Source of the DNA: Escherichia phage FL20
Strand: one strand, 5' to 3'
Sequence record: PP400781
Length of the DNA stretch: 64,000 nucleotides
Position numbers and translations under genes: made by a program. Of the stretch, positions 4,519-62,303 are shown in pieces (positions within the stretch are counted from its first letter, which is position 1; each line of letters opens with the position of its first letter). The notes under the pieces are model-generated. The model saw nothing but the letters and a program-made list of their open reading frames with translations, was not told the origin of the DNA and ran no database searches.

Positions 4519-5277
4519 TTACTTGCAAACGTATTGATCTACATCAATTGCGCCACCGAATGTAGGATGACGTTTTTCAAATCGAATAGTTCCGTCGTTT
4601 GGTTCGAAAACGGAGTATTCATATAGATCTTTCTTGCCAACATTCTTATAAAACCCGCCTTTCGTCATAACGGTTTCTTGTACGTTTGCTTTGTGTACGT
4701 TGTATTCGTCAATGTATACAAAATCAACCATCTTCCCATTTTTAATGGTTACTTTAAGATCTCCTGGTTGATTTCCATATTTGGCATACAGTGGCGCTTC
4801 TTTAATTTTTGTGGAAATTCCATCTTTCATACTCCACTCATAACGAACGGTGCATTGATAGGTAAAAGTTTCGACCTTCGGTTCTTCCACCACTTTTTCT
4901 TCCTGTTTCGGTTGTTCTTCTTCAACCTTCACAGAAGTCTCTGAATCGCTTTCTGACGCGGTTTCTTCTTTAGGTAATACATTCATCAAATTTTGGATTT
5001 GAGCGTTGTATACAGCCTCCAGTGGCTGGATCTGCCCGATATTGATCATTGTATCACGAACAGTTTTATTCCAGTTGAGTTGCTCTTGTTTAAGAGACGG
5101 ATCAATCTTAACAGCCTTAACATATACTTCATGAAGTTTCGAATCCAGTGCGGAGATTGACTCATTAGCACAAATAAACTTCTCTGATTTGGTAGTGGCT
5201 TTAGCGCAATCAAAGGACGCAGCATTAGCACCGAAAGCAGTAGCGGAAAGAACGATAGCAGCGATAATGTTTTTCAT
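4519..5277 (-). CDS. Secreted protein with LprI/DUF1311-like N-terminal domain (lysozyme-inhibitor-like)
   Basis: 252 aa; signal peptide MKNIIAAIVLSATAFGANA; then C-x10-C ... LDSKLHEVY ... QLNWNK pattern typical of DUF1311; Glu/Lys-rich linker; own promoter at about 5312-5340. Confidence 0.55.
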   Translation of the reverse strand: MKNIIAAIVLSATAFGANAASFDCAKATTKSEKFICANESISALDSKLHEVYVKAVKIDPSLKQEQLNWNKTVRDTMINIGQIQPLEAVYNAQIQNLMNVLPKEETASESDSETSVKVEEEQPKQEEKVVEEPKVETFTYQCTVRYEWSMKDGISTKIKEAPLYAKYGNQPGDLKVTIKNGKMVDFVYIDEYNVHKANVQETVMTKGGFYKNVGKKDLYEYSVFEPNDGTIRFEKRHPTFGGAIDVDQYVCK

Positions 5278-30657: not shown

Positions 30658-31631
30658 TATACGAACTCCAATTCAACCATTAATTGCATTAACAAAAAGA
30701 CAATGTGAATCTCTTTATCAGCCGCGTGTGCAAACATCTGATTATTTTCACCGATAATCTCGGTCAGACGGATAATCGACGCTGGCTTAACTTGAGTATA
30801 CAACTCATTATAAAGTTTCTTGACAAATTGAGCGTATGTATTGGTATATCGCGGTGCAAGTTTACGCACATTAGCAAACTGTTTAGTTTTAAGTGCTTCC
30901 ACCACATCGGTTACTTCGGTATTGCTACTTTCGATAACCATGCTCAATACGCCAGCATCAATTTTACCATGTTTAGCGTAGCGGTCCAAAAGTTTCATTA
31001 CGCGTCGGAAGTCTGGGAAGTTCTGCTTAACCAGTTCCGCTAATACGCGCATTTCTTCTACTGGCACACCTTCTTTATCAAGAATTGCTTTACACCGGAC
31101 GATCATTTCTTTCATCATGCGAAGCTGATCATCTTTAGTCGGAGATCCAAACGTGATGGGATCAAATCGAGATCGTAACGCTGGTATAATACCTTCTAGA
31201 TCGTTTGCTGTGATAATGAATGTCACATTGTTTGAGTATGCCTCAGAGAAACTACGCAAGTGTCTTTGAGCATCAGCTAACCCCGCTCGGTCATACTCAT
31301 CGATAATAACAACTTTGCCTTTTTCTCGTTTTTCTTCATCGAGTGATACACTCTGCGCAAAGCGTGTAATCTCATCACGAATAAAATCAATCTTACAATC
31401 TGCACCGTTAACAAACAGATAATCAACACCAACATCTTCGCAAAGCGCCTTAGCAACGGTTGTTTTACCAGTACCCGGCGATGGGCTATGCAGAATCATT
31501 GAAGGGATTCGGCCTTGCTTAACAATCTGCGCGAAGATCTTTTTATCTGCTTCCGGCAGAATACATTCAGAAATTGATTTCGGACGGTATTTCTGTTCCC
31601 ACTGAAACTCATTTTCATTAACACTCAGCAT
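30657..31631 (-). CDS. 44: Clamp-loader ATPase gp44 (AAA+)
   Basis: 324 aa from ATG 31629-31631 (GAGGTGA RBS); EQKYRP, HSPSPGTGKTTVAKAL, VIIDEYDR, QRHLRSF, NFPDFRR match T4 gp44. Confidence 0.9.
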   Translation of the reverse strand: MLSVNENEFQWEQKYRPKSISECILPEADKKIFAQIVKQGRIPSMILHSPSPGTGKTTVAKALCEDVGVDYLFVNGADCKIDFIRDEITRFAQSVSLDEEKREKGKVVIIDEYDRAGLADAQRHLRSFSEAYSNNVTFIITANDLEGIIPALRSRFDPITFGSPTKDDQLRMMKEMIVRCKAILDKEGVPVEEMRVLAELVKQNFPDFRRVMKLLDRYAKHGKIDAGVLSMVIESSNTEVTDVVEALKTKQFANVRKLAPRYTNTYAQFVKKLYNELYTQVKPASIIRLTEIIGENNQMFAHAADKEIHIVFLLMQLMVELEFV

Positions 31632-57762: not shown

Positions 57763-57989
57763 TATATTTTATTCACGTCCATTTGTATAGTAGTGTTTGA
57801 ATCGACCTTTGCTAAACTAGTTAAACATAGTAACCAATTCACCATCCCTTTCCAATGATAACACTTCCTCGTCTTAGACGGGTCTTCTGATTCGGCAGTA
57901 ATTGAACACGCGAAAGTATGAGGAAGCCAAATAGTTGTGTTGATGCTAGTATTCTTTTACTTCTGGTATGTATCCAAATGTGACTAACA

Positions 57990-58388
57990 TTAAGCCAATC
58001 GAGTGAGTTTATAAATTGTTTTAAAGCATAGAGCTTTGATATCGTCTAAAACGCTCTGTAACGAGCTATCAACATCATTATAAATCTCACTAGCCATTTG
58101 CGTTAACTCTTGCAAATAGGCAATTTCGCTCATCTCCTTGCGGACGACCAACGTTGGCTGATAACGACCAGTGATCCCAATATTGGTTTCAGTGAAATCA
58201 TCAACCAATTCTTGCATTTCAAGATAGAACTCTTCTAGAGCCTTATGTTTTGCATAAGATCCAGGACCAGTTACTCCAAAATGCGCAGAATGCATATAAG
58301 TAACACTCATCAGACATTCACCGATAAAGCGGTCAACTTTATTAGCTTTCCCCTCTTCGGACGTCTTTCGAAAATCACTGAATTTCAT
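57990..58388 (-). CDS. Hypothetical protein (132 aa)
   Basis: ATG at 58386-58388 with GGAGAAT RBS; followed by about 230 nt with no ORF. Confidence 0.4.
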   Translation of the reverse strand: MKFSDFRKTSEEGKANKVDRFIGECLMSVTYMHSAHFGVTGPGSYAKHKALEEFYLEMQELVDDFTETNIGITGRYQPTLVVRKEMSEIAYLQELTQMASEIYNDVDSSLQSVLDDIKALCFKTIYKLTRLA

Positions 58389-58677
58389 GTTCTCTATTCT
58401 CCATATTATGCAACATAACAAACTGTTGTGCGGCATATTCCCCCATAATAAAACACTGCTTAGAATCCATACATTTACTACGAGCATACATCTTCATAAT
58501 ATGGGCATGAAATTTCTGGCTGGTTTCAATGGAAGGAGATATTTTGTTTACATATACTATCATTGCACCGTCGAAATAATCAGTAAAGTCACCAGTTGGA
58601 TCATATTGATCAGCACTGACACTTCCGACCGCAGTCAAGCATATTGCCGCTGTTAGAGTTTTACGAATAAATGACAT
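58375..58677 (-). CDS. Secreted/periplasmic small protein
   Basis: 100 aa; signal peptide MSFIRKTLTAAICLTAVGSVSA. Confidence 0.45.
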   Translation of the reverse strand: MSFIRKTLTAAICLTAVGSVSADQYDPTGDFTDYFDGAMIVYVNKISPSIETSQKFHAHIMKMYARSKCMDSKQCFIMGEYAAQQFVMLHNMENREHEIQ

Positions 58678-58745
58678 AAGTCATTCCCCCAGATTAAAAA
58701 TATTCAGTTATATTTATAATCTGGGGCTTTATTTATGATTAACTC

Positions 58746-59342
58746 TTATTTGGTAGTACCGTCAATAAAATGTTTACGACACACAGAGACATATTTATCC
58801 TCTGCACCAACTTCTATTTGAGCACCATCGCGAATAACATTACCCTCTTTATCTACACGAAGGACCATTGTTGCTTTCTTGCCACAATGACAAATACCCT
58901 TCATTTCGACCAGTTTATCAGCAAATGCCATTAATGCCGCAGATCCTTCAAATAGATTGCCCTGAAAGTCGGTGCGAAGGCCATAGCACAGTACAGGGAT
59001 ATTTGCATCATCAACAAGCGCACACAAGCCTAAAACATGCTCTTTAGTCATAAATTGGGCTTCATCTACAAATACAGCATCAGGACGCCATCGATCCGGT
59101 CTACGCTTACCTAATGATTCACGATAAACCAAGTCGAAAAGGTCATCCGATTTAGTGAAGGTGATCGCTGGAGCACTTAGGCCAATTCGGGAAACAACTT
59201 CACTTTCTGAATCTCGATTATCAATCGCTGGCTTAAGAATTAATGCTCGCATATCACGTTCGGTATAGTTATAAGCACTTTGTAACAGAGAAGTTGATTT
59301 GCCAGCGTTCATAGATGCATAGTAGAAATATAGTTGCGCCAT
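58746..59342 (-). CDS. tk: Thymidine kinase
   Basis: 198 aa; P-loop ASMNAGKST, VFVDEAQF, C-terminal zinc ribbon CHCGKKAT...VCRKHF; collinear with T4 Tk. Confidence 0.9.
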   Translation of the reverse strand: MAQLYFYYASMNAGKSTSLLQSAYNYTERDMRALILKPAIDNRDSESEVVSRIGLSAPAITFTKSDDLFDLVYRESLGKRRPDRWRPDAVFVDEAQFMTKEHVLGLCALVDDANIPVLCYGLRTDFQGNLFEGSAALMAFADKLVEMKGICHCGKKATMVLRVDKEGNVIRDGAQIEVGAEDKYVSVCRKHFIDGTTK

Positions 59343-59635
59343 TAATTAATCTCCAAAAATCCAGCAAGACCTAAACCGATATAAGTCCAGATACAAAGGA
59401 AAAAGAAACAAACACCCATAGCAAAGATAAATCCGCGTAGTGTCTTTGGATAACCTACCCAATATTCCCGACCATCTTCTAACCGGATCAGCTTATTTCC
59501 TTGAGAGTCTATATCAATTACAACATGTTTATTTCTGGATTGTAACAGATATTGCTTGACAATCTCAATACCCGCCATAATAACAATAACGAAATTGAAA
59601 GTCCACATAACAAGGTTAATGGTAGTCTCAAGCAT
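59342..59635 (-). CDS. Hypothetical membrane protein
   Basis: 97 aa with two or three TM helices. Confidence 0.4.
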   Translation of the reverse strand: MLETTINLVMWTFNFVIVIMAGIEIVKQYLLQSRNKHVVIDIDSQGNKLIRLEDGREYWVGYPKTLRGFIFAMGVCFFFLCIWTYIGLGLAGFLEIN

Positions 59636-59870
59636 TTTCTATCACCTCCACCCAATCAGGTGTTTCCTGAAAGACTCCTTCGCCTTCATGATGGTCGCAA
59701 CCTTTATTGCTGCAATACATCCACCAATCCCACATTCCCCACGGTAAACGCTGCATATCGTCGTTACAGCAAGTGAAGATGATAGGCCAACCACATCTAA
59801 AACATCGGCAGTTTTCTTTCATGTGAGCGGTATTAGGCTTCTTCATAGATGACTCCAATATAATCGACAT
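59628..59870 (-). CDS. Cys/His-rich small protein (putative zinc-binding)
   Basis: 80 aa; CRCFRC...CC...C...C...H. Confidence 0.4.
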   Translation of the reverse strand: MSIILESSMKKPNTAHMKENCRCFRCGWPIIFTCCNDDMQRLPWGMWDWWMYCSNKGCDHHEGEGVFQETPDWVEVIENA

Positions 59871-60073
59871 TTACATTTAGGGCAATGCGGTTCTTTAATA
59901 TAATACCCGTCTGTCTTTGGAACACTAACAGGAGCGGTTTTTATATTGTATTCGGTGAAACAACGAAAACAAGTTACGTTTTCTACAGACTGACGTTTCA
60001 CCCAATCACCGGAATATAGATCATTTTTATTTGTCATATTCAACCACCACAATGTTAATGTCTGGAGTAGCAA
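59843..60073 (-). CDS. Cys-rich small protein (putative zinc ribbon)
   Basis: 76 aa; CFRCF...CPKCKC. Confidence 0.4.
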   Translation of the reverse strand: MLLQTLTLWWLNMTNKNDLYSGDWVKRQSVENVTCFRCFTEYNIKTAPVSVPKTDGYYIKEPHCPKCKCRLYWSHL

Positions 60074-60482
60074 TATTAATGATCTCTTCTACACATTCCC
60101 ACTCAAGGCCACCGATACCGCAACCGATTTTAGGAATATAGAAAGGCTGTGTAGCACCTTCAAAAACATCATTGAGAGTCTCAAATCCTTTCAGGATAGC
60201 ACCATATTCAGCATTTGGACCCGGTCGGAATTGGGTATAGAGATTCACCCCGCACCAGTTATAACCATTAACTTGATGCGTCCAGACACTAAACCCACCC
60301 AGCTTTTCGACCTTACCGCGAGAAGTTTGCTTGTCAATCTCTAACGCTTGCGGGAACTCTTTCGCGATCTTTGCAGCAATACCAGCGCCCATAGTATGAA
60401 AACAATTACAACCATGAATTAAATGACCGTTTCCTTGTTTAAACAGGGCGATGAGATCGCCCTTTACAGTATCAATAATCAT
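60027..60482 (-). CDS. Macro-domain-like protein (ADP-ribose binding/processing fold)
   Basis: 151 aa; N-terminal HGCNCFHTMGAGIAAKI (position of the macro-domain NAAN-GGGV loop) and C-terminal IPKIGCGIGG (position of the phosphate-binding glycine loop). Confidence 0.45.
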   Translation of the reverse strand: MIIDTVKGDLIALFKQGNGHLIHGCNCFHTMGAGIAAKIAKEFPQALEIDKQTSRGKVEKLGGFSVWTHQVNGYNWCGVNLYTQFRPGPNAEYGAILKGFETLNDVFEGATQPFYIPKIGCGIGGLEWECVEEIINIATPDINIVVVEYDK

Positions 60483-60497
60483 AATATAAACCTCTCA

Positions 60498-60857
60498 TTA
60501 GTCACGGGAAGACAACCCAGCCATAAAACGGCTTAACAGTGTGTCGCGATAAGCAAAGCATAATTGCTTATCAGGGGCAGTATCACACAGGTTACGTTTT
60601 GTTTTAGCAAAGCTGGCAATACTCAGATCCCACGCTCGATTTTTTCGTTTTTCGTCTCGACCTTGTTTGTATGCTTCATCAAGTTCGAGCGCGATAAAAT
60701 CACTACACATGTTATCATCATCACAGAAAGTTTTAATGATCTTTTTGTTGATCTCAAATCCTTTGTATTCGAACTTTGGATAAGGGCGCTCATTACTAGC
60801 AAGCGCACCAGCAGAGAACATCATAGCAATCATAGCAATTATTGTCAACTTTTTCAT
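60498..60857 (-). CDS. Secreted/periplasmic protein with 4 Cys
   Basis: 119 aa; signal peptide MKKLTIIAMIAMMFSAGALA. Confidence 0.45.
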   Translation of the reverse strand: MKKLTIIAMIAMMFSAGALASNERPYPKFEYKGFEINKKIIKTFCDDDNMCSDFIALELDEAYKQGRDEKRKNRAWDLSIASFAKTKRNLCDTAPDKQLCFAYRDTLLSRFMAGLSSRD

Positions 60858-60864
60858 ATATTCC

Positions 60865-61455
60865 TCAATAGCGTTTAGTCTTAAGAATGCCTTTACTCTT
60901 TAGATGGTTAGCCTTTTTTAGTACGTCATCAGCATAACCTAATCCGGCTTTATAGTTCCATCCAGCATTGTAAGAAGCTAGCGCGAGTCGGATATTACCG
61001 TTTCGAACATCCAGCCAGTATGCTAACTCATCCATCGCGTAGAATGCAGAAACCTCGCGATTCATGATAAAGTTGATAGTCTGGCGATCACTCATTTTAA
61101 CACCGCGCTTTGCATTTTTCGCTTTCACCGTTTTAAGGTAATTTTGAAATAATCCATAAGCATGATGATTTTTCTTTGGTGCTAAGTTTGCACCCGCGCT
61201 TGATTCTTGCCATGCGATACCCGCCAGGATGTGACCTAAACCCTTTCCGTTATAGCGAATATTCGGATGGTACTTTTTCAACTTACCGCTTTTCTCGAAT
61301 TGCTCGCCGTATTGATAGGCGAAATGTAAATTATCTAGTTGGTGTGCTGTAAAGTTGTCTATCGGCGCTTTTTTGATCGGTGCGCTAGTCGATGCGTGTG
61401 TAGCACCAACGGCTAGTGACAGACTCAATACTATCGCTTTTAGAACTTTTAACAT
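60865..61455 (-). CDS. Secreted lytic-transglycosylase-like (SLT domain) protein
   Basis: ATG at 61453-61455 with AGGAG RBS; signal peptide; catalytic-type E-S motif (WQESSAG), GLFQ and AYNAG signature motifs. Confidence 0.5.
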   Translation of the reverse strand: MLKVLKAIVLSLSLAVGATHASTSAPIKKAPIDNFTAHQLDNLHFAYQYGEQFEKSGKLKKYHPNIRYNGKGLGHILAGIAWQESSAGANLAPKKNHHAYGLFQNYLKTVKAKNAKRGVKMSDRQTINFIMNREVSAFYAMDELAYWLDVRNGNIRLALASYNAGWNYKAGLGYADDVLKKANHLKSKGILKTKRY

Positions 61456-61540
61456 TAATTTCTCCTGTTTGGCTTGACTTTCTGATTCCATAATATAGCC
61501 CTATCACCAGAAAGTCAAGCATTAATTTAACCAATTTCCA

Positions 61541-61963
61541 TTATTGGTCTACCTTCAAAACAACCGCCGACATTTTACCCGCCAGTCGTTTTGGATTCTC
61601 TATAATCATTCGGCAGCATAGACCGTGATATGGCTTACCCTCTTCGATTAGATCTACTGTCATCCCGATCCACATGTTACCGTCAGTAATTTCTAATCGA
61701 TTAGGTCGGTCTTCCATTTTCAGGAAGTCGAAGATCTCCGGCAAACGAGTTTCTATCTTATTGAATAGTTCCATTGTCTTATGTTCATCGATATGACGAT
61801 CGGTTAGACGGTCGATCATATGCGGACTAAAGCGAATGAAAATATACTCACCGTAACCATCATTCAAGCACTTTTCTTTGATCTGCGCATTGGTTTTGCG
61901 CATTTCGGTTTCGAAGAATCTACGCAGCTTACTACGGCGAACATGTACGTTAATTGTTTCCAT
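61541..61963 (-). CDS. regB: Endoribonuclease RegB
   Basis: 140 aa from ATG 61961-61963; RRSKLRRFFETE, RLEITDGNMW, CRMIIENPKRLAGK match T4 RegB. Confidence 0.85.
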   Translation of the reverse strand: METINVHVRRSKLRRFFETEMRKTNAQIKEKCLNDGYGEYIFIRFSPHMIDRLTDRHIDEHKTMELFNKIETRLPEIFDFLKMEDRPNRLEITDGNMWIGMTVDLIEEGKPYHGLCCRMIIENPKRLAGKMSAVVLKVDQ

Positions 61964-61967
61964 TTTA

Positions 61968-62303
61968 TTATCCTTTCTTAAACAAATTGCGAAGCCAGTA
62001 TACAAACGGGATTTCTTTAAACTTGAACTTGTCAATAGTTAATTCTTTAGTAGCAAGATGAATACCATAAGCATCATGTGTAACTATATGCCATTTTCTA
62101 TAGTCCAAATGTGAACAACCGTCTGGATCTAGGTTAATAAGAGTTTCTCGCTCACTAGGATTATTTTTCCACAATTTTGTAATAGGATCGCACATAATTC
62201 GACCTAGCGTACCATGAATAATCTCACAACGGTAAAGTTTTCCAGCAGTGAGATAGGCGCACCCGTCATAGTCGGTATAAACAAACACTTCTTTAACACT
62301 CAT
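61968..62303 (-). CDS. Hypothetical protein (111 aa)
   Basis: ATG at 62301-62303 with AAAGGAG RBS. Confidence 0.4.
   Translation of the reverse strand: MSVKEVFVYTDYDGCAYLTAGKLYRCEIIHGTLGRIMCDPITKLWKNNPSERETLINLDPDGCSHLDYRKWHIVTHDAYGIHLATKELTIDKFKFKEIPFVYWLRNLFKKG

Follow-up and report, generated by a model that had tools for sequence, protein, structure and literature searches.

Genes for three predicted exported proteins lie close together in the DNA of a T4-type phage, which raises the question of whether they constitute a single early cluster directed at the host envelope. A preliminary description of this DNA had treated the products as anonymous exported proteins, one of them SLT-like, of one early region, and had proposed that an early periplasmic lytic transglycosylase could remodel the cell wall or act against superinfecting phage. 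The window, by which we mean the whole 64-kb stretch of DNA analysed, is that of an RB49-like Krischvirus, with 98-99% DNA identity to RB49-type phages. The three open reading frames (ORFs) are present as described, on the minus strand like the other features of this region given below, and each corresponds to a gene annotated in RB49 and ECD7. On sequence evidence they are the orthologues of T4 rI (58375-58677), vs (60498-60857) and vs.1 (60865-61455). The export-type N-termini and the SLT-likeness seen earlier thus stand; what had gone unrecognized is that these are already-known genes of the T4 family. The cluster is mostly ordinary, and because it consists of three annotated T4-family genes, its description changes little.

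The interest of the locus lies in vs.1 and vs, which form one conserved, co-translated module of predicted exported proteins with a measurable effect on T4 fitness, and neither of which has an established envelope function. The label of vs, now 50 years old, conflicts with the predicted topology of its whole protein family and is being passed on in Pfam, PHROGs and PGAP annotations. Here, we describe a computational analysis of the three genes. The best explanation of the locus, and in our judgement a probable one, is that orthologues of rI, vs and vs.1 carry export signals, that rI encodes a late antiholin, and that a coupled early gene pair encodes the transglycosylase Vs.1 and the envelope protein Vs.

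Export signals and independence of the gene units

N-termini were scored by a heuristic that requires a positively charged N-terminal end, a hydrophobic core of 8-14 residues with a mean Kyte-Doolittle value of at least 2, and a small-x-small cleavage site. RI (MSFIRKTLTAAICLTAVGSVSA, cleavage before DQ), Vs (MKKLTIIAMIAMMFSAGALA, before SN) and Vs.1 (MLKVLKAIVLSLSLAVGATHA, before ST) all pass, as do their T4 orthologues, against a background pass rate of about 3% (5/145) for ORFs of the non-coding strand. With out-of-frame overlaps excluded, the only further coding-strand ORFs to pass are 4519-5277 and 31277-31456. Relatives keep the signal, as counted in two sets of distinct sequences: Vs in 33/33 and 6/6, Vs.1 in 50/53 and 6/7. 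The earlier proposal of three exported proteins is therefore borne out at the level of the heuristic, and all three are predicted to be exported and may be cleaved.

The proximity of rI to the other two genes carries no compelling statistical weight: vs and vs.1, being coupled, count as a single unit, and only two independent units, about 2 kb apart, are left. rI and vs.1/vs are two separate functional units, not one.

rI is probably expressed late

The rI product, of 100 amino acids, is a predicted antiholin and lysis-inhibition regulator. It matches Pfam Antiholin (PF24205; 82.8 bits, curated threshold 27, E 1.6e-23) and phrog_1246, lysis inhibition (3.7e-26), in agreement with the RB49/ECD7 annotation, and gives a weak match to the T4 RI structures 6PSK and 6PSH. 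Its N-terminal signal or signal-anchor-release (SAR) segment comprises residues 1-22 (58612-58677), of which residues 7-20 are hydrophobic and rich in Ala, Thr, Gly and Ser, a sequence that fits a cleavable signal or a SAR domain. Cys69 (58471-58473) and Cys75 (58453-58455) are invariant, T4 included, and the gene order rI.-1, rI, tk is as in RB49 and T4. The likeness to T4 RI extends to HMM family, length, export-type N-terminal segment, cysteine pair, gene position and a late promoter on the 5' side, whereas the two proteins are only 26% identical and rI.1 is missing here between rI and tk.

The T4 late-promoter consensus TATAAATA (58711-58718) lies 34 nt 5' of the rI ATG and is the sole copy in the window, against 5.7 expected by chance; the same motif is found between tk and rI.1/rI in T4. 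Folding places the promoter within an RNA hairpin (58687-58726) of -27.2 kcal/mol (z = -5.65), a stability that 0/200 shuffles equalled. The 3' arm of this hairpin, AAUCUGGGGG, covers the G-run of the rI Shine-Dalgarno sequence, and an RNA started after TATAAATA is without the 5' arm. In early read-through RNA the hairpin would pair with the rI ribosome-binding site and mask it; late transcripts, initiated within the hairpin sequence, would have the site unpaired. RI, the periplasmic antiholin of lysis inhibition, would in this way be produced when holin is present. Since its late promoter lies inside a hairpin that is predicted to mask the ribosome-binding site, rI is probably made late, and we infer that its translation is confined to late transcripts. 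The T4 omics data class T4 rI as middle RNA and late protein.

The translation of T4 e (lysozyme), soc and I-TevI is controlled by a hairpin that is bypassed via a late promoter. The rI arrangement has the same elements: the late promoter lies in a stem-loop, and the 3' arm of this structure is predicted to base-pair with the ribosome-binding site. It differs in that the putative control, deduced from folding, would act on rI. The enclosure of the rI late promoter in such a hairpin also distinguishes this locus from T4, in whose rI region, read by eye and unfolded, no comparable strong hairpin was found.

Vs.1 resembles family-1 lytic transglycosylases

The vs.1 gene encodes a 196-aa protein, a predicted exported GH23/SLT-like lytic transglycosylase with 52% identity to T4 Vs.1. 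Its start at 61455 (MLKVLK..., preceded by an AGGAGA ribosome site) is the one chosen in the preliminary description; a longer ORF beginning at 61491 was rejected, as that start falls within the -10 element of the promoter-like site described below. Residues 1-21 (61393-61455) form the signal peptide. The protein matches Pfam SLT (PF01464) with 25.8 bits (gathering score 21.3, E 8.1e-6), as do 22 of 23 relatives at E <= 0.01, the best at 1.3e-7. The catalytic Glu84 (61204-61206) lies in WQE84-S-S86 and is followed by HHAYGLFQN (61141-61167; YGLFQ at 100-104) and SYNAG (60961-60975; 161-165). Both alignments show no variation at E84, S86, G101, F103, Q104, S161, Y162 and G165; in the 23-sequence alignment A164 does not vary either and N163 hardly does, and the family alignments show the HHAYGxFQN motif to be invariant across relatives. 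The ES motif, the GLMQ-like GLFQ and the AYNAG-like SYNAG are shared with T4 Vs.1 (phrog_600) and the family-1 transglycosylases.

The AlphaFold model (pLDDT 83.4) has a lysozyme-like, all-helical fold, and its best 18 Foldseek matches in the PDB are all GH23 (probability 0.92-1.0), including a chitinase (3w6f), MltD (8rhi), a goose-type lysozyme (3wyh) and Slt (5ohu), these four types at probability 0.98-1.0, but with E of only ~1e-2 and TM-scores of 0.4-0.57. A profile search of PDB sequences gave no match, the sequence being too divergent for profiles to reach any solved structure. Its predicted fold and its putative periplasmic signal peptide are further features in common with T4 Vs.1 and the family-1 enzymes, such as Slt70, MltD and goose-type lysozyme; unlike bacterial GH23 enzymes, it is one small domain of ~175 residues, without superhelical, LysM or lipoprotein modules. 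The earlier designation of this protein as SLT-like is upheld by the Pfam match above cut-off, the motifs and the GH23-only top Foldseek matches. We propose that Vs.1 is exported to the periplasm where, with its predicted catalytic Glu intact, it would act as a family-1 (GH23, Slt-like) lytic transglycosylase that cuts murein glycan strands. The SLT similarity of vs.1 was published in 2006 by Nolan et al. (PMC1524935), and no report of Vs.1 activity was found in the literature searched.

vs.1 and vs are a coupled early gene pair

At the vs.1/vs junction (60862-60867), the TGA that ends vs.1 (60865-60867) runs into the Shine-Dalgarno sequence of vs, GAGGA (60862-60866), and the vs ATG follows at 60855-60857. 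Wherever vs is present, the spacing of the two genes is between -7 and +8 nt. vs comes directly 3' of vs.1 at 38/38 of the loci seeded with Vs.1 and possessing Vs, at 7/7 of those seeded with Vs, and on two distant metagenome contigs, and the order vs.1, vs, tk.4 is common to the window, RB49 and T4. vs.1 and vs are a translationally coupled, strictly conserved early gene pair. Vs is missing beside the Vs.1 homologues of Aeromonas phages and more distant ones, so Vs.1 is not strictly dependent on Vs.

A sigma-70-type promoter-like site, TTGACT-17-TATTAT (61490-61518; 10/12 matches), lies in the 85-nt gap between regB and vs.1; in total, such sites are no more numerous here than shuffled sequence would lead one to expect, and this one is to be read as a consensus match. 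In the T4 omics data, vs and vs.1 are both of the early RNA/middle protein class, and both proteins were detected by mass spectrometry. The single early region of the preliminary description thus holds for vs.1/vs, by the promoter-like site and the T4 classes, and fails for rI, which is late-type by its late promoter, its hairpin and its T4 class.

Transposon mutants of T4 vs and vs.1 are viable, and the genes are non-essential but fitness-relevant. Insertion reads in both are ~5-30x below those of flanking non-essential genes; in LB the means are 22.6 for vs.1, 26.6 for vs and 180-770 for the neighbours. In minimal medium the log2FC is -2.19 for vs insertions (adjusted p ~0) and -0.87 for vs.1 insertions (p 0.0055, adjusted 0.155), and vs.1 mutants are depleted on the wild E. 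coli host CFE299 (log2FC -1.20, adjusted p 0.015). Because vs.1 insertions may be polar on vs, the shared phenotype could arise from polarity by itself. Since a structural search with Vs yielded no informative structural relative, synteny and the shared phenotype are what point to Vs as a partner of Vs.1, and an interaction of the two proteins is suggested on that basis.

The location and role of Vs

Vs, of 119 amino acids, is a predicted exported four-helix protein annotated as 'valyl-tRNA synthetase modifier' (phrog_1256, 1.8e-33). BLASTP aligns it with T4 Vs over the full length (27% identity, E 4e-8) with all four cysteines in register, the gene likewise lies between vs.1 and tk.4, and close relatives carry PF26829 (ValRS_modifier). 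Residues 1-20 (60798-60857) form the signal peptide. Cys45 (60723-60725), Cys51 (60705-60707), Cys91 (60585-60587) and Cys100 (60558-60560) are invariant and, in the family alignment and the AlphaFold model (pLDDT 81), are arranged as two helix-stapling pairs; one relative has a lipobox, LSGC. These features indicate the envelope, whereas ValRS is cytoplasmic. Judged by sequence prediction only, Vs would not be a cytoplasmic protein; the conservation of its signal peptide, the invariance of its four cysteines and the existence of a lipoprotein variant sit awkwardly with binding of ValRS in the cytoplasm. The mismatch concerns the function that the name implies, not the homology to T4 Vs.

Vs would be exported together with Vs.1 as a four-helix protein of ~100 residues held by two disulfides, and would most likely work in the envelope, in the Vs.1 pathway, as a partner or modulator. 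More specifically, and as a tentative proposal, Vs in vivo may be the periplasmic, disulfide-stapled partner of Vs.1 in a two-gene envelope module of T4-type phages, rather than a cytoplasmic ValRS modifier. The association of the 10-kDa 'tau' factor with ValRS would then be a post-breakage artefact, the work of a small unexported fraction or a historical ORF mis-assignment, and the defect that T4 vs mutants show in minimal medium would be an envelope phenotype. If Vs works in the periplasm, a textbook assignment would be corrected and a handle gained on early cell-wall modification by T4-type phages, especially in nutrient-poor hosts.

It is also possible, though doubtful, that Vs is a cytoplasmic factor that binds and modifies host ValRS, its N-terminus being unused or export being partial, and that its adjacency to vs.1 is functionally meaningless. 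Classical work on Vs reportedly saw in-vivo effects on temperature-sensitive valS hosts. T4 vs deletion impairs growth specifically in minimal medium, where growth is limited by amino-acid supply, which fits a role connected with amino acids or tRNA charging. The ValRS-modifier label stands in every record, in PHROGs and in Pfam, and the literature, citing Muller and Marchin 1975/1977, views Vs as a ValRS-binding factor. Against this, the signal peptide is kept in every one of the distinct relatives counted above despite mature parts that are only 26-40% identical; one relative has the lipoprotein form; paired cysteines of this kind are typical for periplasmic proteins; and the gene is strictly coupled to that of a predicted exported enzyme. 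Moreover, full-length His-tagged T4 Vs is insoluble when produced in the cytoplasm, and T4 Vs lacks an internal Met close to the end of the signal peptide from which a signal-less form could start.

An unlikely alternative concerns the enzyme, which might be an accessory or relict lysis factor, a secreted or signal-anchored endolysin that aids host lysis rather than serving an early envelope function. Lysis is not known to occur with T4 e mutants, so that Vs.1 would be unable to replace the endolysin. In T4-type phages vs.1 lies in the early block beside regB, distant from the lysis genes, and its T4 expression class and non-essentiality also argue against a lysis role, as do signals that are short (16-21 residues, AxA-type sites) and fit cleavable signal peptides better than SAR tethers. 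Such a role is nevertheless what two distant lineages (L045, L046), in which a phrog_600 gene is directly followed by an Rz-like i-spanin, would suggest, together with the Vs.1 homologue of Felixounavirus 'dune', annotated 'putative lysin' and followed by the spanins 1.2 kb downstream; Nolan et al. 2006 (PMC1524935) suggested 'some role in cell lysis'.

The partnership proposed for Vs and Vs.1 could take the form of restraint, with Vs a periplasmic inhibitor in an enzyme-antidote pair by analogy with Spackle and gp5. T4 Spackle is a periplasmic inhibitor of gp5 lysozyme; like it, Vs is small, helical, signal-peptide-bearing and early, and is here associated with a predicted muralytic enzyme. 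In favour of this, Vs is small and predicted to be exported and disulfide-bonded, it evolves fast (it is 27% identical to its T4 counterpart, Vs.1 52%), its gene is translationally coupled 3' of the enzyme gene, and in minimal medium losing vs does more harm than losing vs.1. We nevertheless hold this to be quite improbable: vs.1 insertions are not neutral and cost about as much in LB as those in vs, the fold of Vs resembles none of the known inhibitors of lysozymes or transglycosylases, and several lineages have Vs.1 without Vs.

It is very unlikely that superinfecting phages are the target of the exported proteins and fail because Vs.1 alters or degrades the wall: early periplasmic expression matches the T4 exclusion-protein pattern, RI itself responds to superinfection and T4 vs.1 mutants are significantly depleted on CFE299, but neither sequence nor context contains a pointer to exclusion, and the transposon fitness costs are not specific to superinfection because the pools were grown at mixed multiplicity. 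Wall remodelling and superinfection roles may apply, the evidence neither supporting nor excluding them.

Other genes of the stretch

The context genes are tk, encoding thymidine kinase (58746-59342; Pfam TK, 3.5e-51), the regB endoribonuclease gene (61541-61963; Pfam REGB_T4, 2e-48, and RB49 annotation) and the tk.4 orthologue, encoding a macro-domain protein (60027-60482; Pfam Macro, 3.3e-6) with 43% identity to T4 Tk.4; T4 tk.4 has been given the name AdfM, anti-DarTG2 factor, in a 2025 preprint. Another envelope protein encoded here, absent from the earlier list, is a Krischvirus-specific 97-aa protein (59342-59635; phrog_16027), in which residues 5-23 and 64-82 form two TM-like segments.

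Gene content of the rI-regB region

Across 57900-62100, where every gene lies on the minus strand, the sequence shows 98-99% identity to RB49-type phages (Krischvirus, Straboviridae), MIZ6, ECD7 and RB49 among them. The three ORFs for which the preliminary description proposed exported products exist as described, an ORF scan agreeing with the RB49 and ECD7 records, where they are annotated as rI (58375-58677, minus strand), vs (60498-60857, minus strand) and vs.1 (60865-61455, minus strand). They are known genes, near-identical to their RB49 copies. The start chosen there for vs.1, at 61455, is also the right one, as it possesses an AGGAGA ribosome site; the other ATG, at 61491, falls inside the -10 element of a promoter-like site (TTGACT-17-TATTAT). 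The gene order, rI.-1, rI, tk, three small ORFs, tk.4, vs, vs.1 and regB, matches that of T4, which differs by an additional rI.1 and other small tk.x ORFs.

Several of the intervening ORFs merit comment. The ORF that separates tk from the zinc-binding ORFs (59342-59635, minus strand) encodes 97 aa with two transmembrane-like segments; it is Krischvirus-specific, belongs to phrog_16027 (function unknown) and is a further envelope protein missing from the earlier list. The two small neighbouring ORFs (59628-60073, minus strand) match the Pfam families Phage_zn_bind (1.6e-33) and Phage_zn_bind_2 (1.8e-23) and occupy the place where T4 has tk.1-tk.3. Adjoining vs is the tk.4 orthologue (60027-60482, minus strand), a macro-domain protein 43% identical to T4 Tk.4. 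Since T4 Tk.4 has been named AdfM, an anti-DarTG2 factor (2025 preprint), this orthologue is probably an anti-defence ADP-ribose hydrolase and not a 'phosphatase'.

A late-promoter consensus within a predicted hairpin precedes rI

The product of rI matches Pfam Antiholin (E 1.6e-23) and the phrog category 'lysis inhibition', and matches the solved T4 RI chains weakly. The T4 late-promoter consensus, TATAAATA, occurs once in the 64-kb window (5.7 copies expected by chance), at 58711-58718 on the minus strand, 34 nt upstream of the rI start; in T4 it is likewise present between tk and rI.1/rI. This copy is enclosed by a hairpin (58687-58726, minus strand; -27.2 kcal/mol, z = -5.65) whose 3' arm spans the ribosome-site G-run of rI, and an RNA begun just past TATAAATA lacks the 5' arm. 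The T4 genes e, soc and I-TevI have a late promoter within a hairpin that masks the ribosome site, the same arrangement as that of rI in the window. Because TATAAATA lies inside a hairpin that pairs with the ribosome site, RI synthesis is predicted from late RNA: early read-through RNA from tk would be translated poorly at rI, and RI would be made from the late transcript. The arrangement suggests that rI, in the manner of e and soc, is translated solely from the late RNA. In T4, rI is classed as 'middle RNA, late protein' (time-resolved omics, PMC9697503 supplements), and vs and vs.1, both of whose proteins were detected, as 'early RNA, middle protein'. Expression of rI is probably regulated separately from that of vs.1 and vs.

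Predicted export signals in RI, Vs and Vs.1

The proposal that all three proteins carry export-type N-termini held up: RI, Vs and Vs.1, as well as their T4 orthologues, pass a simple heuristic (not SignalP) that asks for a net positive N-end, a hydrophobic core and then a small-x-small site. In the rest of the 64-kb window just two further coding-strand ORFs pass, out-of-frame overlaps being left out, and about 3% of non-coding-strand ORFs do so. Relatives from viral contigs conserve the feature, with 33/33 and 6/6 distinct sequences passing for Vs and 50/53 and 6/7 for Vs.1; the Vs.1 sequences that fail comprise a truncated ORF, an ORF that has its first start codon within the signal, and hydrophobic N-termini that do not satisfy the charge rule. 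Of the arguments for export signals, this conservation is the stronger. The predicted mature N-termini of the T4 proteins are DTSYTEIR... for Vs, whose signal peptide ends at ASA before D, and SEHTFSNVQLDNMR for Vs.1. The clustering of three signal-peptide genes, noted in the preliminary description, is statistically unconvincing once vs.1 and vs are taken as a single unit.

Vs.1 is a distant member of the GH23 family

The SLT-likeness claimed for 60865-61455 was correct. Its product matches Pfam SLT above the curated cut-off and is also assigned to phrog_600, a family of unknown function; SLT is matched by 22 of 23 family members at E <= 0.01. In two alignments (13 and 23 sequences, identity down to 39%) E84 and S86 (WQESS) are invariant, and H97, A99-G101 and F103-N105 (HHAYGLFQN) and S161, Y162 and G165 (SYNAG) are kept; they are the counterparts of the ES, GLMQ and AYNAG motifs in family-1 lytic transglycosylases. 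AlphaFold modelling from the alignment of 23 sequences (pLDDT 83.4) gave top Foldseek PDB matches that are all GH23, namely a Ralstonia chitinase, Pseudomonas MltD and Slt, and ostrich goose-type lysozyme, with probabilities of 0.92-1.0 but E-values of no better than about 1e-2 and TM-scores of 0.4-0.57. Because sequence and profile searches of the PDB returned no significant match, the Vs.1 family is placed as a distant GH23 branch.

This similarity is already published: Nolan et al. 2006 (PMC1524935) judged the SLT similarity of T4-type vs.1 to be conserved, though marginal, and proposed 'some role in cell lysis'. The literature searched yielded no functional study of vs.1. By tblastn, relatives are found in 2085 phage records, including Ackermannviridae and Felixounavirus, in which they are occasionally annotated 'putative lysin'. 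Two loci from distant large-phage lineages (L045, 2842-3905; L046, 2929-3865) hold a signal-peptide phrog_600 gene followed directly by an Rz-like i-spanin gene (phrog_739) in place of vs; there a Vs.1-family member lies within a lysis cassette, which ties the family to such cassettes elsewhere.

vs.1 and vs form one unit

In the window the vs.1 stop codon is overlapped by the Shine-Dalgarno sequence of vs (GAGGA). Vs is detectable in 38 of 70 loci retrieved with Vs.1, and in all 38 vs follows vs.1 directly on the same strand, the spacing between them being -7 to +8 nt; conversely, loci retrieved with a subset of the Vs alignment have Vs.1 directly upstream in 7/7. Two metagenome contigs with very divergent Vs (26-37% identity) keep the same overlapping layout, with regB, tk or rI nearby. 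We conclude that the two genes are a single unit. No Vs accompanies Vs.1 in Aeromonas phages or any of the distant homologues. Four Aeromonas-phage loci (L040-L042 and L047) keep regB and vs.1 and have no vs, and the pair is therefore not universal. A T4-like locus (L007, 3541-3798) encodes a shortened Vs of 85 aa, without the first Cys pair.

Vs is a small protein with two cysteine pairs and a predicted N-terminal signal

The vs product belongs to phrog_1256, 'valyl tRNA synthetase modifier', and an exhaustive representative search of 1.8 billion proteins found only 16 relatives at E <= 1e-3. Fourteen of the 16 have an N-terminal signal, the exceptions being an N-terminally truncated fragment and a repetitive 395-aa protein; one relative, P0034, bears a lipobox (LSGC). 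Four cysteines (C45, C51, C91 and C100) are invariant in the family and are shared by T4 Vs, whose alignment with the window protein runs over the full length (27% identity, E 4e-8). An AlphaFold model (pLDDT 81) has four helices, with each Cys pair flanking a helix-to-helix connection; sequence and profile searches of the PDB gave no significant match.

Three other readings of Vs were rejected. The C-terminal C-x8-C-xx-Y motif in particular recalls CP12, a redox-switch protein with two Cys pairs, and the resemblance, which concerns the mature part of Vs (60558-60725), is sub-threshold (PDB profile E 0.93; Pfam CP12 in 2/17 members at E 0.065) and probably reflects convergence or chance. Paralogy of Vs with RI, likewise small, exported and bearing C-x5-C, received a probability of 3.5% over 9 columns when the family alignments were compared with hhalign. 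Finally, a promoter-like site within vs (60820-60848, 11/12 matches) that could give signal-less Vs was attributed to chance, because such sites are as frequent in the region as in shuffled sequence, a start at the next in-frame Met (M50) would lose Cys45, and a corresponding Met is absent from T4 Vs.

Discussion

The gene identities and predicted topology of RI, Vs and Vs.1 are well supported, and as a finding the three genes were already known. Vs.1 is most likely a periplasmic lytic transglycosylase that works on the murein of the host from the early or middle stage of infection. What is added here is that the predicted topology of Vs conflicts with its annotation, and that vs.1-vs is recognisable, from sequence, as a putative conserved exported pair; both ideas are directly testable.

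Fitness data from T4 bear on this pair. In HIDEN-SEQ, a 2025 transposon-sequencing preprint, neither vs nor vs.1 is essential, insertions being present at 30/32 and 46/52 TA sites; in liquid LB competition, however, both had far lower insertion reads, 26.6 and 22.6, against 179-767 for the non-essential neighbours regB, tk.3, tk.4, vs.3 and vs.4. On M9-glucose no T4 gene was depleted more strongly than vs (log2FC -2.19, adjusted p about 0), and a clean vs deletion plaqued poorly; vs.1 fell as well (-0.87, p 0.0055, adjusted 0.155). With the wild host CFE299 the depletion was significant for vs.1 (-1.20, adjusted p 0.015) and of similar size, though not significant, for vs (-1.04). The CRISPRi-ART paper mentions none of these genes. 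We think that Vs is exported alongside Vs.1 and serves the same pathway. Their shared timing, strict coupling and similar fitness costs fit such a view, with the caution that a transposon insertion in vs.1 could have polar effects on vs.

A role of Vs on valyl-tRNA synthetase (ValRS) still has to be reckoned with, given the classical biochemistry, and the minimal-medium phenotype of vs is compatible with it as well. The HIDEN-SEQ authors read vs through this label and say nothing of export; in a structural-genomics paper of 2021 Vs is likewise treated as a ValRS binder, the full-length His-tagged protein is reported as insoluble and the signal peptide goes unmentioned. A cytoplasmic site is, however, hard to square with a signal peptide that the family conserves, with its lipoprotein variant and with its invariant Cys pairs. 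A simple enzyme-inhibitor model, in which Vs checks Vs.1, fits less well, as vs.1 insertions carry a cost and some lineages have Vs.1 without Vs. The action against superinfecting phage raised in the preliminary description would be a hypothetical further role.

Elsewhere in the window, a 252-aa ORF (4519-5277, minus strand; phrog_14799, function unknown) has a classical signal peptide (MKNIIAAIVLSATAFGANA, cleaved before A) and lies just below threshold for the Pfam LprI lysozyme-inhibitor domain (E 3.9e-4, 21.2 bits, cut-off 22); it may be another exported cell-wall-related protein.
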